A DNA stretch of 46,447 nucleotides, from assembly GCA_963721525.1 (NCBI GenBank), contig CAVRJL010000011.1, forward strand, positions 1 through 46,447, read 5' to 3'. A program made the translations under genes and the position numbers. The stretch is from an uncultured Negativicutes bacterium (GTDB lineage: Bacteria; Bacillota; Negativicutes; JBAXTZ01). Below, piece after piece: positions 4,176 to 35,649 of the stretch; the stretch's first letter is position 1; each line of letters starts with the position of its first letter. The notes under the pieces are model-generated. The model saw only the letters and a list, made by a program, of their open reading frames with translations. It had not been told where the DNA came from and ran no database searches.

Positions 4176-4618
4176 CTAAAAACCTAACCCTATAAATTTT
4201 CCGACAATTTCAGTAATATTTATTTTACATTGTCACAAGTTTGCTATTTTTCTTTATTTTAAACTTTTATGTGATCGATGTTATCTATATCAACACTTTT
4301 TAAAAAAATATATCTCCATTAGTAATAATCCCTATTTATTTCCTTTAAATTCCTGAAATATAACTTTTATAAAATATATTATACTATTTTGTGTGAAATC
4401 TCGAAAATGCCTCTGTTTTTAATGTTTTTTATATTTTTGTACTATGTTTTCTAATGTTTCACTTTTGTTTCTATATTTTCTGTTAAAGTATAAAAATTTC
4501 TGCTTTATTCTGTTGAGGATGCAATAAATAGGAAATAAATTTATAAGTTAAAATTAAGTCATCATTGCCTAAATATTTAGATTCTTCCGTTAAAGTGTAA
4601 TAAGCGTATACTTACAAA
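4176..4618 (-). pseudogene. mraZ: heavily eroded mraZ remnant
   Basis: Manual minus-strand translation gives collinear MraZ-like fragments: NGRI*IFRQ, EAFSRF, NK*GLLL (cf. DKQGRILI), HIKV*NKEK* (cf. RIEIWSKEKW) and ITEIVGKFIGLGF* ending 1 nt before the rsmH ATG; canonical mraZ position. The 5' boundary is approximate. Confidence 0.75.
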
Positions 4619-4642
4619 TAAAAAACACTGTATTTTTATTCT

Positions 4643-6259
4643 TTAGTACAATTTTTTCTGTTTTCCAAGCACAGCTTCTATAAAATTTTTAAATAGAGGA
4701 TGAGGTTTATTCGGTCGGGACTTGAATTCAGGATGAAATTGTGTTCCCAAAAACCAAGGATGATTTTTAAGCTCCACTATTTCGATAAGTCTTTCATTCG
4801 GAGATACTCCAGAAAAAGATAACCCGGCAGTTGAAAACATATCTTTATAGATATTATTAAATTCATATCTATGACGGTGGCGTTCATAAATTATTTTTTC
4901 TTTATAAGATTTGTATGCATTAGTTCCTTCAACTAATTTACAAGGATATATTCCTAACCTCATAGTCCCGCCTTTATGTTCAATCGTTTGTTGCTCAGCC
5001 ATTAAATCTATTACTTGGTTATTACTTTTTTTGTCAAATTCACTTGAATTTGCATCAACTAAATTACATACATTGCGAGCAAATTCTATAACCATACATT
5101 GCATACCTAAACATAAACCTAGAATCGGAATTTTATTAATACGTGCATACTCAATTGCTTTTATTTTTCCTTCTATTCCTCTATCTCCAAACCCACCTGG
5201 AATAACAATTCCGCCTATATTACCAATAATTTTATCTATATTTGCATCTCTATCTTCTAAAAGTTCGGCATTTATCCATTTTATTTCCACTTTTACATTA
5301 TTATAAAGCCCACCATGGCATAAAGCTTCATTGACACTTATATAAGCATCGTGTAAGTCAACATACTTACCAATAAGTGCTACTTTAACTATTGAAGATA
5401 AATTTAATATATTGTTAACTAATTCCTCCCATTCTATCATGTTAGGCTTTTGCACTGTTATATTCAATTTTTTTAAAACAATACGATCTAAACCTTCTTT
5501 ATGTAACACTATCGGCAATTGATATATACTTGGCATTGTTTTATTTGTAATTACAGCATCAGTATCAATATCACAAAATAAAGCTAATTTTTCTTTTACT
5601 CCATTTGAAATATTTTCCTCGCTACGACAAACAATAATATCCGCCGTGATTCCAATCGATCTTAACTCTTTTATGCTATGTTGAGTAGGTTTTGTTTTTA
5701 ATTCTCCAGCGGTGCCCAAATAAGGTACTAAAGTAACATGAATATATAATACATTCATCTTTTCCTACTTCCTTTTTTATTTGTCTTATTGCTTCTAAGA
5801 AAGGGAGACCTTCAATATCGCCTACTGTCCCACCAATTTCAGTTATAACAATATCAGCATATCTGCTTTTCCAACACGATAAATACGTTCTTTAATTTCA
5901 TTTGTAATATGAGGAATAACTTGTACTGTACTACCTAAATAATCTCCTCTACGCTCTTTAGAAATTACAGACCAATAAATTTCTCCTGCAGTTACATTTG
6001 AGTTTTGTCTTAAATTTTCATCTATAAATCTTTCATAATGGCCTAAATCAAGATCTGTTTCGGCTCCATCATCAGTAACAAAAACTTCTCCATGTTGATA
6101 TGGGCTCATCGTACCGGGATCTACATTAATATACGGATCAAATTTTTGAACTGTAACTTTTAATCCACGATTCTTTAATAATCTCCCCAACGATGCTGCA
6201 GTTATTCCTTTACCTAAAGAAGAACTAACTCCTCCAGTAATAAAAATATATTTTGTCAT
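4643..6259 (-). pseudogene. pyrG: CTP synthase interrupted by two compensating frameshifts (pseudogene, recoded gene or sequence error)
   Basis: ORFs 5843..6259 and 4643..5758 share one frame. The conserved [34 protein letters not shown] lies intact in a shifted frame at 5757..5858. The repaired gene is 538 aa, with intact GLCLGMQ and HPE glutaminase motifs. Confidence 0.92.
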
Positions 6260-6285
6260 TATATCTTCATATCCTTTTTTACATC

Positions 6286-6804
6286 TTATACAACTTCTTC
6301 TTCACTTTCAGGGTCAATATAAATTGAGGGTTTAATGTTCTCTTCTATTTTTTCTTGTATAGTTTCAAAAACCATTTCACGACGCTTTCTTTCAAAAAGA
6401 TGCTGACTTGCTTCAAATTGCCTTAAAACTTTCATATCGTTTTGTGCAATCCATTCAGCTAACCCCCAAATACCTTTTCCGTAATAATAAAATCTGCTAT
6501 CCATATTTATTTGAGTATATAACTCAGCCATAATATGCGCCCAGTTATAATTATCTATTTCAATCCGCCCTTCGACAGCCTTCCTTAACAGTTCACGAAA
6601 ATGCAACGATTTATTCTCATAAATAAGGATTTGATAAAATGTTTCCAAATTACTTAAATTTGGAGTCCTTAAAAAATCTTTTTTGTCATCTATAGTTTCT
6701 TTAATTTTTGGAATAGTTAATCCTATTTTTTTTTCTTTTTTTATTATTTTTCTTTCTTCCTTTTTTTTATTATTTATATCTTTTTTTTTAACTTCTTTAT
6801 TCAT
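6286..6804 (-). CDS. rpoE: DNA-directed RNA polymerase subunit delta
   Basis: HARE-HTH core LHFRELL...[13 protein letters not shown]...GIWGLAEW; conserved argS-rpoE-pyrG synteny; AAGGAG RBS. Confidence 0.88.
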
Positions 6805-6814
6805 TTTTCTCCTT

Positions 6815-8512
6815 TCACATACTCTCCAGTGCTCTTATACCAAGTATATTTAAACTATGCTTCAAACAATTTTTAACTACTTTTATCAAAATTATTCTAC
6901 TATTACATTCTTGTTTGGTATTTGCTCCAATTATTCTACATTGATTATAAAATGCATGAAATAATTCTGCAAGTTCTAAAACATATTTAGCTATATAATG
7001 CGGTGCACGAAAATCAGCAGCTTTACTTATTTTATTAGGATAATCGTAAATTTTTTTTATAATATCAATTTCTATAGGCAAACTTAAACTAGATAAATCT
7101 ACTTTTTCGATATCAGGAATTGATATCTTCTCTATTTCAAGCTGTCTAAAAATACTACAAATTCTTGCATAAGCGTATTGTATGTAATAAACAGGATTTT
7201 CATTCGATTGTTTAATAGCTAAATCGATATCAAAATCTAATTGACTATCTATTGACCTCATAATAAAAAAATATCGTGCCGCGTCTTTTCCAACTTCATC
7301 AATTAATTCTTTTAAAGTAATAATATTTCCAATTCTTTTTGATAGTTTTACTAGTTCTTTTCCTTTAAAAAGCCTTACCATCTGTAAAAGTAATATTTCT
7401 AATCGTGAAGTATCAAAGCCCAAAGCTGCCATAGCCGCCTTCATACGTGTAACGTACCCATGATGGTCTGCACCTAAAATATTTATTAACCTATCAAAAC
7501 CTCGCTCAAATTTATTGCAATGATACGAAATATCAGGTGTAATATATGTAGGATTTCCATCTGAACGAATTAACACTCTATCCTTATCATCTCCAAAAGT
7601 TGAAGACCTTATCCATTTTGCTCCATCCTGTTCATATAAATTACCGCTTTTTTTCAATTTTTCTAAAATATCTTTAATTTTATTTTTCTTGTATAATTCT
7701 TTTTCGCTAAACCAATTATCAAAAGTTACCCCAAATTCTTTTAAGTCCTTTTCCAAAAGCGCAAGTTTTTCTTTGTAAGCAATTTTTTTAAAAATTTGTA
7801 TTCTTTGGCTTTCTTCAAACCCTAAATATTTATCTCCGTCTTTTTCTATAATTTTATGCGCTGTAGCATAAATATCTTCTCCATAATAACCATCTTTAGG
7901 AAAAACAAAAGGTTGTCTTAATAATTCCAAGTACCTTGCATTGACTGAAAGTGCTAAGTTATCTATCTGTTGGCCTGCGTCATTAATATAGTATTCAGTA
8001 CTTACCTTATTACCAGCAGCTTTTAAAATATTTACTAAAACGCTTCCCACAGCTGCACCTCTTCCATGCCCTATATGTAATGGTCCTGTTGGATTAGCGC
8101 TTACAAATTCTATTTGGATATATTCTTTACTATTTGGTATAGCCTCTCCATAAGTTTCCCCAGTTTTATAAATTTCTTTCAATCCAGTATAGATCCACTG
8201 TTTATTTAAATAAAAATTTATAAAACCTGGCCCTGCGACTTCCACTTTTTCTATAAAATTAGTATTAGGTGAAATATACGCAATAATTTTTCTTGCTGTT
8301 TCAAACGGGTTAATTTTTAAATCTTTAGCTATTTTCATCGCAAAATTAGTGGAAAAATCTCCAAATTCTTTTTTAGGAGGTTGTAAAAGCTCTATTTCTC
8401 TATTTCCAATATATTGGGCTGCCGATTTTTCATTTTTTGAAAAAATCCTCAGTGCGGCAATTTTTAATATATCACGTATACTTTGTTCTATTTTTTGATT
8501 CTTATTTCCCAT
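6815..8512 (-). CDS. argS: arginine--tRNA ligase
   Basis: VAGPGFINF, EFVSANPTGPLHIGHGR, GADHHGY and NPVYYIQYA motifs. Confidence 0.98.
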   Translation of the reverse strand: MGNKNQKIEQSIRDILKIAALRIFSKNEKSAAQYIGNREIELLQPPKKEFGDFSTNFAMKIAKDLKINPFETARKIIAYISPNTNFIEKVEVAGPGFINFYLNKQWIYTGLKEIYKTGETYGEAIPNSKEYIQIEFVSANPTGPLHIGHGRGAAVGSVLVNILKAAGNKVSTEYYINDAGQQIDNLALSVNARYLELLRQPFVFPKDGYYGEDIYATAHKIIEKDGDKYLGFEESQRIQIFKKIAYKEKLALLEKDLKEFGVTFDNWFSEKELYKKNKIKDILEKLKKSGNLYEQDGAKWIRSSTFGDDKDRVLIRSDGNPTYITPDISYHCNKFERGFDRLINILGADHHGYVTRMKAAMAALGFDTSRLEILLLQMVRLFKGKELVKLSKRIGNIITLKELIDEVGKDAARYFFIMRSIDSQLDFDIDLAIKQSNENPVYYIQYAYARICSIFRQLEIEKISIPDIEKVDLSSLSLPIEIDIIKKIYDYPNKISKAADFRAPHYIAKYVLELAELFHAFYNQCRIIGANTKQECNSRIILIKVVKNCLKHSLNILGIRALESM

Positions 8513-8714
8513 TAATTTACCTTTAAATTTATAAATGTTATTTCAAATTTTATTTTATTTATCAATTATTTAGTATACCAATATATAACGCATAAAACCA
8601 CTATACACTCTATATGTTGTTTTCATTTACACAGCTATTGAGTTAATATCGCTTTAAGACGCATATGGATTTTAGCGTATTCCCAGATAGTTTTTCAGCT
8701 AAAATATTAATTTT

Positions 8715-10070
8715 TTATATCGGTTTTACATAATTTCCTTTTTTTAATTTTTTCAATTCGTTCCAAACCATAATTCCTGTAAAAAACCCTGCTAATAAAT
8801 CAGATAAACTTCCTGATAACCATATTCCATCCAACCCTAAAAATTGGGGTAAAAAATAGATTATGGGAAATAAAAAAACTGTCTGTCTAAGTAAATGCAA
8901 AGACATGCTCAAATTAGGTTTACCTATTGCCTGAAAAAAACTTGCGGCAATAATTTGACAAGCCATTATAGGAATAAGTAGTAGATGTAAAAATAAACCT
9001 CTACCTCCTAACTCTATTATTAGTTTTTCCGAAGAAAAAATCTTTATAAGTTCTCTTGGATATAAATGACTTACAATAAAACAAAATAAAGCTAATATGG
9101 TTCCAATAATTAATGCTCTATTCAAAGTTTCAATAACTCTGTTATATTTTTTTGCTCCAAAATTATATCCTATAATAGATTGTGCTCCCTGAGTTATTCC
9201 GATTATAGGAGTTAAAAACAAGAAGGTAATTCTATTAATAATTCCCACCGAAGCTACAGCAGGAGGACCGCCATAAATAAGTAAAATTTTATTATAAACT
9301 ATAATTATTAAACCTGTAATACCTTGGACAATAAATTGAGGCATTCCGTTTTTCAAAACTTGTATGTTTAAAGACAAATCAAGTTTAAAATATCTTCTTT
9401 TTATTTTTAATAAACTTTTCTTAGATGAAAAATAATACAAATTATATAATGAAAATAAAATTTGCGTTATAATGGTAGCTAAAGCCGATCCTTTTATACC
9501 TAAATTGAAATATAAAATAAACAAAGGATTAAGGCAGGCATTGAGAATAGAAGAAATAAGCATAAGATACATTGAACGTTTAAAGTTTCCTTGGACTCTC
9601 ATAACAGCATTTAAGAGAAAACTTATAAACATGAATACAGTTCCGTAAATTATTATTTCTATAAATTCAGAACTTATTTTAATATAATCGTGCCTTGCAC
9701 CTAAAATAAATAAAATCTTATAAAGAAAATTATTTACACTAAACGCTAAAATTAATCCTAAAATAATTGCTAAAACAATAGAAGAATTTAAAATTTTCTC
9801 AGCATATTCATATTGTTTTCTCCCTAAAGCAATAGAAATTAATGTGATGGAGCCAATACCAACCATAAGTGAAATTGCTGTTTGTACTACCACAAAAGGA
9901 AACGTTAAACTTACCGCATACAATCCTTCCTGTCCAAGAAAATTACCGATAAAAAAACTATCGATAAGATTATAAGTAGCCATAACAAGCATTCCTATAA
10001 ATGCAGGGAAAGACAATTCTATTAATAACTTACTTATTTTTTCAGTTTCAAAAAATTTAACGTTTCTCAT
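8715..10070 (-). CDS. MATE family efflux transporter (MepA-like)
   Basis: About 12 TM helices; YNLIDSFFIG, LNPLFI, GIKGSALAT, GYNFGAKKY and GLDGIW MATE motifs. Confidence 0.9.
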   Translation of the reverse strand: MRNVKFFETEKISKLLIELSFPAFIGMLVMATYNLIDSFFIGNFLGQEGLYAVSLTFPFVVVQTAISLMVGIGSITLISIALGRKQYEYAEKILNSSIVLAIILGLILAFSVNNFLYKILFILGARHDYIKISSEFIEIIIYGTVFMFISFLLNAVMRVQGNFKRSMYLMLISSILNACLNPLFILYFNLGIKGSALATIITQILFSLYNLYYFSSKKSLLKIKRRYFKLDLSLNIQVLKNGMPQFIVQGITGLIIIVYNKILLIYGGPPAVASVGIINRITFLFLTPIIGITQGAQSIIGYNFGAKKYNRVIETLNRALIIGTILALFCFIVSHLYPRELIKIFSSEKLIIELGGRGLFLHLLLIPIMACQIIAASFFQAIGKPNLSMSLHLLRQTVFLFPIIYFLPQFLGLDGIWLSGSLSDLLAGFFTGIMVWNELKKLKKGNYVKPI

Positions 10071-10394: not shown

Positions 10395-10406
10395 ATAACA
10401 GCCGTT

Positions 10407-10435
10407 ATTATATACTATTTAATATTTTATAGCAA
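10407..10435 (-). promoter_or_regulatory. sigma-A promoter of the tRNA Asn-Glu-Val operon
   Basis: TTGCTA-N17-TATAAT ending 12 nt upstream of tRNA-Asn. Confidence 0.75.
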
Positions 10436-10564
10436 GTAATTTTATAAAAACTTTCAAAGTTTACCAAGTGTTTTGTATTTAACGGCGTTACAATTGTACG
10501 CATTTTTGATTCAATATATATAAAGAATATTGTAGGTATTATTTTATCATATAACATAGAAAAA

Positions 10565-10960
10565 TTGATAATAATACTGATAAGACATATCACGATATCT
10601 TTACAATATTATGCATTGTGTTTTTTTATCTTAACTTGCCATAAAAACAACAATGTAAGCATATTAGTAAATGTACAAGATGATACTAAACTTCCAGTAG
10701 AAAAATTATTTTCTTTGTCTAAATATTTTAGAAATGTGACAAAATTACTTACTCCATTAAAAGAAACAAACTTACCTACTAGATATTAAATAATTATCAA
10801 AATAAATACCAAAAATTAGTGTCGATACAGAAAATTAACCTATTATACTCTTACAAACCAAATATTCGGAACTATTACAACATTTTATATTTCTATAGTC
10901 TATTTTAAATACCAACTAAAATAATTTCGTAATCTTATATTAAGTATATATAGTAAGAAT
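10565..10960 (+). pseudogene. possible eroded polysaccharide deacetylase gene
   Basis: ILTCHKNNNVSILVNVQDD from 10628 resembles the (V/I)LxYHK..SLSV.PED N-terminal motif; a later frame-shifted EN*PIIL resembles LPENPVLITFDDG. Similarity is weak and recalled from memory; boundaries are approximate. Confidence 0.3.
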
Positions 10961-11199
10961 TATGCACATGTATCAAAAAATAGTAAAAAAGATATAAAAA
11001 TCTTTGAATGAATGGCATTTTATCTTATTCTCTTTTTAAGAAATAGCTTTTAATTATTTAGAAAATATAAATAACTTATATATTAAAATAAAAATTTTAA
11101 AGCATAACACGTAATTTATTATTAATAACAGTATTGTTTGTAAACTATATCATGCTATAATTAAGAAATATATGCTGATCAATAAAATCGATTTTAAAA

Positions 11200-11580
11200 T
11201 CTAAATATTCTAATAAATTATAAATTTACGCAATGGTGAAAAAATCATTACTCCTAGAAATACACATAAAATTTTTATTTAGAGGGTAATTTTATCAGAA
11301 TTTATTTTCGTATTCATTTATACTAGATATCCTCGAAAATTCGGGCTAGACTTAAATGCGTATAGTTTTTTAAATTGCTATAAAATAACTACAATTCTGT
11401 TTGTGTTTATTGTAATCTTCAATGTTTATTGTTAATTCTAAATTAATATATAAAATATTAGTTTTTTATCTATCTAGGCGAAATAATTAATGAAGAAATT
11501 ATTTCATATTTTTAAAGGGTACAAACTTATAGTTCATAATCTGATTGTGAAATTATCAATAAATTTAGTAAAATTAAAAC
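11200..11580 (+). pseudogene. Orn/Lys/Arg decarboxylase (YaaO-like) remnant with a large internal deletion
   Basis: From 11223, NLRNGEKIITPRNTHKIFI*RVILSEFIFVFIYTRYPRKFGLDLNA (cf. PGDKILVPRNAHKSV...ILSGA.PV...). From 11468, IYLGEIINEEIISYF (cf. C-terminal PGE.ITEEII.Y). Canonical position upstream of tmk. Confidence 0.8.
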
Positions 11581-11589
11581 GGTGAAATA

Positions 11590-12231
11590 ATGCAACGCGG
11601 AATATTTATTTCTTTTGAGGGTGCTGACGGAACAGGAAAAACAACACAAAGTATGTTGTTAGCCGAATTTTTACGTAGTAAACAGTACAAAATAATACTA
11701 ACTCGTGAACCTGGGGGCACACTTATTAGTGATAAGATACGACAAATTATTTTGGATAATAATAATTATCGTATGACTACTCGTACAGAATTGCTTTTAT
11801 ATGCTGCTGCTCGTGCTCAACATGTAGAAGAAAAAATTAGACCTTTACTTTTTCGCGGCGAAATTGTCATTACAGATCGTTTCTGCGATTCCACTTATGT
11901 ATACCAAGGATTAGCTGGTAAGATAGATATAAGAGAAGTGAATTATATAATAAATTTTGCTACTTTAGGCTTAAAACCTGATATAACAATAATTTTAGAA
12001 TGTGATTCTTCTATAAGCGAACAGCGTATACAAAAACGTAAACAAAATAAAAATAGATTAGAATCTGTTTCTACTGATTTTATAAAAAACGTTCACGAAG
12101 GATTTAAAAAATTAGTAAAAATAGATCCTAAAAGATTTAAATTGATTAATACCAATAATAGCGCACAAAATACTCAAAAAGAAATTCAAAAAATCATAAA
12201 AAAATTTTTTAAAAAAGTTAATTTAAAATGA
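11590..12231 (+). CDS. tmk: thymidylate kinase
   Basis: FISFEGADGTGKTTQ, TREPGGT, ELLLYAAARAQH, DRF and YQG motifs. Confidence 0.97.
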   Translation: MQRGIFISFEGADGTGKTTQSMLLAEFLRSKQYKIILTREPGGTLISDKIRQIILDNNNYRMTTRTELLLYAAARAQHVEEKIRPLLFRGEIVITDRFCDSTYVYQGLAGKIDIREVNYIINFATLGLKPDITIILECDSSISEQRIQKRKQNKNRLESVSTDFIKNVHEGFKKLVKIDPKRFKLINTNNSAQNTQKEIQKIIKKFFKKVNLK

Positions 12232-34389: not shown

Positions 34390-35649
34390 TTAGTGTCCAT
34401 GAAAATGCTCTAATTCAGCTCGATTATGCTTATGTTTAAATATTATTACAAAAATAATCGCTACTATTAAAGAATATAATGAAAATATACTCCAAATACC
34501 AGTCCAATCATAGGCCAAAGTTCCTGATACTCTAAAATAATTATCGATCATCCAACCACTGGTCAAACTACCAACTATTGATCCTATTCCATTACTCATT
34601 GACATAAGCATTCCCTGAGCGCTAGCTCGTATGGACGGGACTACTTGAGTTTCAATAAATAATGAGCTTGATATATTAAAAAAGTCAAATGCCATTCCAT
34701 AAATTATACAAGAAAAAAGTATCATCCATAAGCCGTCCCCCGGATTACCATATGCGAATAACCCAAATCTTAAAACCCAAGCTAGCATACTGATAGTCAT
34801 TATTTTTTTTATGCCTAAATGACGCATAAAAACTGGAATTGTAATAATAAATATAGCTTCAGATATTTGAGATATTGACATAAATAATAGGGAATGAGTA
34901 ACAACCATAGAATCTTTATATTGAGGAATGTTGGCAAAATTTTTTAAAAAAGTAGCTCCATATGCATTGGATAGTTGTAAACATACGCCTAAACATAAAT
35001 GAAAGAAAAAAAATAGGGCCATTTTGCGGTTTTTAAGTAATTTAAAAGCATTTAACCCAAGTGCATTTATAATTGAATTACCTTTACTTTTATTTAGAGG
35101 GGGACACTTAGGAAGAGTAAAAGCCATTATTCCAAGTAGTGTTGCTGTGATTGAAGCAATATAAAATTGTCCCTCGCTAGCTTCTAAGTTTTTCCAGCTT
35201 ATTAACCACATTGCAATAATAAACCCAACTGTTCCAAATGATCTAAGCATAGGAAAATATTTTATTATATTCAATTGTGCTCTTTCCATAACGGCATACG
35301 ATATTGTGTAAGAAAGAGACAATGTAGGCATATAAAAAAGCATATTTAATAGCATAACATTAATCATTGTGTCTGGATTATTAATTAACGGCAACATAGC
35401 GAAAATTATCGCGCTAGCCAAGTGAAAATATCCATAAAGACGTTCCGCATTTACCCAACGGTCTGCAATTATACCAGCTATAGTTGGCATAAATAATCCA
35501 GCTACTCCCATTGTCGAAAAAACTTCACCAAAATTAGTAGCGGACCAATGTTTAGTATTTAGCCAATAAACGCTAAGTGATATTAGCCAACTTCCCCAAA
35601 TAAAAAATTGCAGGAATTGCAAAATAGCGATGCGAATTTTAATATTCAT
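34390..35649 (-). CDS. nupG: MFS nucleoside:H+ symporter (NupG/XapB family)
   Basis: FLQFFIWGSW, GIIADRW, YMPT, GTVGFI, SISQISE, LRFGLF, YGMAFDFFNIS and RASAQG motifs. Confidence 0.9.
   Translation of the reverse strand: MNIKIRIAILQFLQFFIWGSWLISLSVYWLNTKHWSATNFGEVFSTMGVAGLFMPTIAGIIADRWVNAERLYGYFHLASAIIFAMLPLINNPDTMINVMLLNMLFYMPTLSLSYTISYAVMERAQLNIIKYFPMLRSFGTVGFIIAMWLISWKNLEASEGQFYIASITATLLGIMAFTLPKCPPLNKSKGNSIINALGLNAFKLLKNRKMALFFFFHLCLGVCLQLSNAYGATFLKNFANIPQYKDSMVVTHSLLFMSISQISEAIFIITIPVFMRHLGIKKIMTISMLAWVLRFGLFAYGNPGDGLWMILFSCIIYGMAFDFFNISSSLFIETQVVPSIRASAQGMLMSMSNGIGSIVGSLTSGWMIDNYFRVSGTLAYDWTGIWSIFSLYSLIVAIIFVIIFKHKHNRAELEHFHGH

Follow-up and report, generated by a model that had tools for sequence, protein, structure and literature searches.

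The window, a 46,447-nt stretch of DNA from an uncultured Negativicutes bacterium, carries a pyrG gene whose reading frame is lost at one site and regained at a second. This arrangement raises the question of whether the organism really possesses a doubly frameshifted gene for CTP synthase. An earlier reading of the sequence alone had proposed very recent pseudogenisation, paired transcriptional slippage or recoding that gates the enzyme, or assembly error. Were the pair real and recoded, it would put an essential enzyme under an unusual form of two-step control. We find that the third of these options is the one supported by intact copies of the gene and by the noise of the assembly. The pyrG indels very probably arose as consensus errors in a metagenome assembly that is noisy and probably built from long reads: a near-identical protein is intact, the extra base is missing from a second DNA source, and indels in this assembly are clustered and often lie in essential genes. 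Thus, pyrG is most likely an ordinary single-frame CTP synthase gene and not a recoding switch.

Frame structure of pyrG

The gene runs from 6259 to 4643 (1617 nt, 538 codons, net in frame; Table 1) and is the only pyrG of the assembly (G000). Its translation, stops included, scores 760.7 bits with the TIGR00337 profile against a cut-off of 462.75. The start frame follows CTP synthase up to residue 133, then meets six stops (three TAG and three TAA), and resumes as CTP synthase at residue 170. Between the two sites the conserved sequence is instead found in the shifted frame, where a run of 35 codons (A135-E169) includes a conserved ten-residue active-site motif and the segment is identical to two same-family genomes at 31/36 and 30/36 positions. 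Frame translation and profile match therefore bear out the claim of two compensating single-base frameshifts, together with the conserved middle segment, its motif and the flanking stops, although the conserved codons number 35 rather than the 34 originally counted. The indels lie 106 nt apart and there is no other lesion in the gene. Whereas a CTP synthase frame of about 535 amino acids with synthase and glutaminase domains is expected, the open frames of the window copy are 138 and 371 amino acids long; the near-identical protein P0121 has both domains in a single frame of 538 amino acids. The gap between pyrG and the upstream gene is 26 nt, and a search of 4200-8800 gave no terminator-like site.

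Loss of the middle segment would remove a motif with residues proposed around ATP. In the available text of a study of the E. coli enzyme, Glu140 and Gly143 are the proposed ATP/Mg residues (PMC8325340); judged from the motif, these would correspond to E141 and G144 here.

Table 1. Positions of pyrG and of the features discussed within it
Feature	Position	Strand	Evidence or comment
pyrG, CTP synthase	4643..6259	-	TIGR00337 score; intact near-identical P0121
Site 1, one base missing, codon 134 (Asn in intact protein)	5859..5861	-	P0121 GKADNADIV; best-scoring repair against 22 orthologues
Conserved codons A135-E169, shifted frame	5754..5858	-	Frame translation; identical to P0121 residues 135-169
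Two substitutions relative to X1, GGT CTC versus GGG CTT	5805..5808	-	Synonymous, third positions of shifted frame
Site 2, extra T between codons E169 and V170	5753..5753	-	X1 gap; P0121 K-D-E-V
ATG in frame with C-terminal part solely via extra T	5756..5758	-	In the intact allele, not a genuine start
D63 (P0121 N) and R84 (P0121 G)	6008..6073	-	R84 in 0/119 relatives, N63 in 1/119

The placement of site 1, with one base missing near 5860, agrees with the sequence-only reading. At site 2 the presence of one extra base stands, but the base is not G5756. It is T5753 (GAT GAA T GTA), because P0121 reads K-D-E-V across the site and sequencing run X1 has a gap at 5753. The 10-mer GT(T/A)GGAAAAG that precedes both sites, the two A4 runs (5870-5867 and 5763-5760) and the ATG at 5758 are all where they had been described, the indels being 6 to 7 nt downstream of the A4 runs. 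The repairs built on these elements fare less well. A common repair of both sites to GAT AAT G fails at site 2 because the extra base is T5753. Repairs within the A4 runs, which would give GKSRYAD and GKMNVL, rank 18th of 104 and 7th among the listed repairs when compared with 22 orthologues, and they contradict P0121. P0121 and the repair ranking, and X1 at site 2, place both indels outside the A4 runs. We also considered repair of site 2 by deletion of an A, which gives KDDV and ranks first with the profile, but P0121 and X1 both give KDEV, the repair of rank 2. A fragment containing the glutaminase domain, suggested to start at the ATG at 5758, depends on the extra T for its frame; once that base is removed, the same ATG opens a frame of nine codons.

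The shared 10-mer encodes V-G-K in the preferred codons of the genome, and the chance of finding it at both sites, given the residues, is about 0.12. Aligned genes contain nine copies of it, and none of the other seven lies close to an indel; the same holds for the remaining 112 of 114 GGAAAAG sites. Among 50 indels in the assembly GGAAAAG precedes only the two in pyrG, and we rejected it as an indel motif in favour of codon bias.

Copies of pyrG in other sources

The pyrG indels are absent from other sources: P0121 reads through both sites, and X1 lacks base 5753. The 371-residue C-terminal fragment of the window gene belongs to a protein cluster of two members, the other of which is P0121, an intact PyrG of 538 amino acids encoded on a 6424-bp Logan contig. 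P0121 matches the start frame of the window gene at residues 1-133 and 170-538, save for D63N and R84G, and is identical to the shifted frame at residues 135-169; it reads GKADNADIV across site 1 and GKDEVLY across site 2. Since the RpoE and ArgS proteins of the window have letter-identical entries in Logan, P0121 comes from this organism or from a strain very close to it. Differing at two residues, P0121 may come from another strain; it may also derive from the same reads as G000, in which case it would not be an independent source.

Three sequencing runs, X1, X2 (an RNA run) and X3, each contain 5-6% of the sampled words. In X1 a contig of 151 nt (record 2) spans 5714-5858, where it skips one base, 5753, and carries two synonymous substitutions. 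Its alignment ends at 5858, at site 1, with seven letters unplaced, so it is informative for site 2 alone; it is a single contig of depth 2.7 and possibly represents one molecule. Other pieces show zero differences from the window, namely X1 record 1 (5562-5712, 151 nt), a piece of X3 (5501-5683, 183 nt) and a piece of X2 (6544-6717, 174 nt). The pieces of X2 listed as near-identical to the window cover neither indel site. An X2 joint at 5596-5720 was set aside: its short side is 27 long at 80% likeness, and it is probably from another organism.

All of the differences from X1 and P0121 fall in 5753-6073, whereas at protein level the final 369 residues of PyrG, and also ArgS and RpoE, show no difference from other sources. 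Because every difference in the region falls inside it, a short, poorly resolved patch at about 5750-6075, possibly with two haplotypes averaged, might be the local cause of the indels. Given the frequencies of R84 and N63 among relatives (Table 1), the window and P0121 may each hold one error. The living organism most likely makes a PyrG of 538 amino acids by normal translation.

Comparison with relatives points in the same direction for the frame. Full-length, stop-free pyrG is present in 36 of 40 relatives, the remaining four copies being partial or missing in fragmented assemblies. Internal stops occur in 0/40. We found no close relative of the same genus. A scan of genome contigs reached a best identity of 61%; a metagenome scan with RpoE gave no match, and one with the N-terminal piece of pyrG gave a best match of 88%, at loci that were not used.

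Indels in the rest of the assembly

We compared G000 with 2.23 Mb (2022 ORFs) of a genome of the same family, G001, using a frameshift-aware aligner. Events were found at 42 of the 398 matched loci, from which we dropped six artefacts (antisense, RNA-gene and start-codon ORF calls) and five loci below 39% identity. This leaves 31 broken genes among the 361 with at least 39% identity to G001 (about 9%), with 50 indels and five stops in 367 kb, or approximately one indel for every 7 kb of coding sequence aligned; the reverse control flagged 1/398. We retained in this count clpB, which first breaks where about 100 nt are deleted, and a penicillin-binding protein (PBP) gene whose apparent indel pair proved to be a degenerate tail. 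Deletions outnumber insertions (34 versus 16). Events cluster, as 11 genes have two or more indels where 3.9 are expected. Both pyrG sites are among the 33 of 50 indels that have no run of five or more within 9 nt.

The broken genes include rplB, rplX, rplE, rpsH, rpsK, rplU, murB, secA, prfB, atpA, atpF and dnaE, and the sole EF-G gene of the assembly is also broken. A search of cluster representatives found no intact near-identical EF-G, the best match being 80-84%. Adjacent compensating pairs occur in five further genes (RNase J, EF-G, rplE, rpsH and a ParB-family gene), and the pair in pyrG is therefore no more than chance would produce in this assembly.

To see how far breaks are private to G000, we looked up 20 fragments of other broken genes. 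Two were absent from the collection and ten had no second source; for miaB the Logan piece ends ahead of the break. A second source spans the break in eight genes, pyrG included; it reads through in four of them and shows the same break in the other four. The second source reads through in pyrG and in rplB (276 amino acids, with a substitution beside the indel), and is intact for a glycosyltransferase (373 amino acids) whose window break is at an A8 run. For wecB it passes the first two breaks and then leaves the frame at a different site of its own. The shared breaks are those of clpB (the deletion of about 100 nt), PBP (a shortened tail), atpA (A7) and dnaE (A8). As these four genes share their break with a second source, the genome carries some lesions that are real or systematically miscalled; pyrG belongs to the private class. 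With about 9% of comparable genes broken, and at least some of the breaks absent elsewhere, single frameshifts, stops and substitutions in G000 are not trustworthy without a second source.

The shared lesions are of two kinds. In clpB the missing sequence lies in the first ATPase domain (G000:C15 ~102814), and PBP lacks its C-terminal tail (G000:C15 ~99370); both truncated products are also in Logan, and the truncations are therefore probably real decay. In dnaE (G000:C15 ~134923) and atpA (G000:C5 ~4592) one base is missing in a coding A-run, and the truncated products are again listed from Logan. An ATG at the end of the dnaE run opens a C-terminal frame of 402 amino acids, and PolC is intact in G000. 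The dnaE and atpA breaks may be genuine frameshifts of the slippage type, or miscalls common to both sources. Single-base deletions occur at 13/668 coding-strand A runs of at least 7 and at 0/173 T runs, a weak difference for which about three would be expected; read errors are expected to be roughly symmetric between A and T runs.

G000 comprises 769 kb in 16 contigs, at 81% completeness and about 31% GC. Its same-family relatives have 2.4 and 3.4 Mb, and its best named matches are in Negativicutes. It represents a strongly reduced lineage that is likely to be host-associated, and we found no obvious description of a reduced-genome Negativicutes lineage at the level of literature listings. 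A small, AT-rich genome is the kind in which real gene decay occurs, which counts against a blanket reading of its lesions as artefacts. For contigs C1, C4, C8, C9, C13 and C14 and most of C2 and C7 (~100 kb) the 2.23 Mb of G001 offers no good match. DNA polymerase III-like matches occur on C8, and these unmatched contigs are possibly phage, mobile DNA or binning contamination. Within the window, the contig end (46210-46447) is a tandem repeat of very high AT content, whose translation is a repeated unit of nine residues. A region of about 1.2 kb at 10395-11590, with 21% GC and no convincing ORF, lies between divergent tRNA and tmk-like genes and is a candidate origin or eroded region.

The pyrG indels could also reflect a real null allele that arose very recently in a reduced-genome bacterium, in the strain or sub-population that was sampled, with the gene intact in other strains. 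This is what survives of the pseudogenisation proposal, as an unlikely minority possibility. The small size of the assembly at its level of completeness is consistent with it, the shared breaks in clpB, PBP, dnaE and atpA suggest some real decay, and P0121 and X1, a few substitutions away, could represent sister strains. The window also holds a putative nucleoside-permease-like gene (34390-35649), and cmk is present. However, a null allele would need two independent indels separated by such a short distance in a gene otherwise free of lesions, and uridine kinase (udk), which could bypass PyrG, gave 0 matches in this 81% complete genome. Moreover, no living cell could have the ribosomal-protein and EF-G breaks of the same assembly as real null alleles, and Logan has an intact rplB. 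A search for TLC nucleotide transporters was uninformative, as it matched no control genome.

Alternatively, different essential genes might be broken in co-resident symbiont lineages that complement each other, and the assembly would be a mosaic of these lineages. Many essential genes are broken, the breaks differ between assemblies and substitutions cluster with the indels, but noisy reads predict exactly the same pattern and the broken genes show no further decay. We regard this explanation as extremely unlikely. A specific form, in which the broken pyrG is a real haplotype among complementing lineages of sub-1-Mb Negativicutes and A-tract slippage rescues dnaE and atpA, is very unlikely.

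Finally, restoration of the frame by paired transcriptional slippage or ribosomal frameshifting, gating CTP synthase, is extremely improbable and already largely refuted by P0121 and X1. In its favour, each site comes after an A4 run within the shared 10-mer and the middle segment is conserved. Against it, the runs are only A4 with the indels downstream of them, shifts within the runs would give peptides that differ from GKADNAD and GKDEVL of the intact protein, each molecule would require two events in opposite directions, the arrangement is seen in none of the 40 relatives, and intact alleles exist.

Comparison with known systems

The closest named matches to the window PyrG (TIGR00337, NF003792) are from Sporomusa spp., with 64% identity over the C-terminal part, and 23 solved CTP synthase sequences match at E below 1e-100. 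The intact form does not differ from a standard CTP synthase; the window copy alone has the two indels.

We found no report of a programmed frameshift in pyrG in the literature searched. Programmed frameshifts have shift sites that are conserved in relatives, and the pyrG arrangement was seen in none of the 40. Polymerase slippage has been linked to pyrG in the form of reiterative transcription at its promoter, which, as described in the available text, acts at transcription initiation (PMC7039003), whereas the window indels lie inside the CDS. In the portion of the work consulted on E. coli RNA polymerase there is no detectable slippage at runs shorter than 7 T or 8 A (PMC6260861), a run-length threshold well above the A4 runs of pyrG.

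The slippage-rescued frameshifts of Blochmannia and Buchnera, as presented in the text available to us, are single indels in poly(A) or poly(T) tracts that are sometimes common to several species (PMC3017870). Like these symbionts, G000 has a small genome rich in AT, and its frameshifts affect essential genes that are otherwise intact. The pyrG pair, however, differs in consisting of two indels outside any long tract that are not shared, and the dnaE (A8) and atpA (A7) breaks fit this class better. Frameshifts of the slippage class lie in A or T runs of about 7-9 or more and are present in the DNA across populations; neither pyrG site lies in such a run, P0121 is intact and X1 is without base 5753.

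Low-coverage long-read metagenome-assembled genomes offer a different parallel. In the accessible part of one study these genomes have residual frameshifted gene calls while their completeness is still good, and bins under 40-fold need short-read polishing (PMC9262707). That text stresses homopolymers, whereas two-thirds of the G000 indels (33/50) are away from them by the run-length measure used above. In its frameshifted calls within a bin that scores well for completeness, G000 is like these low-coverage long-read genomes.
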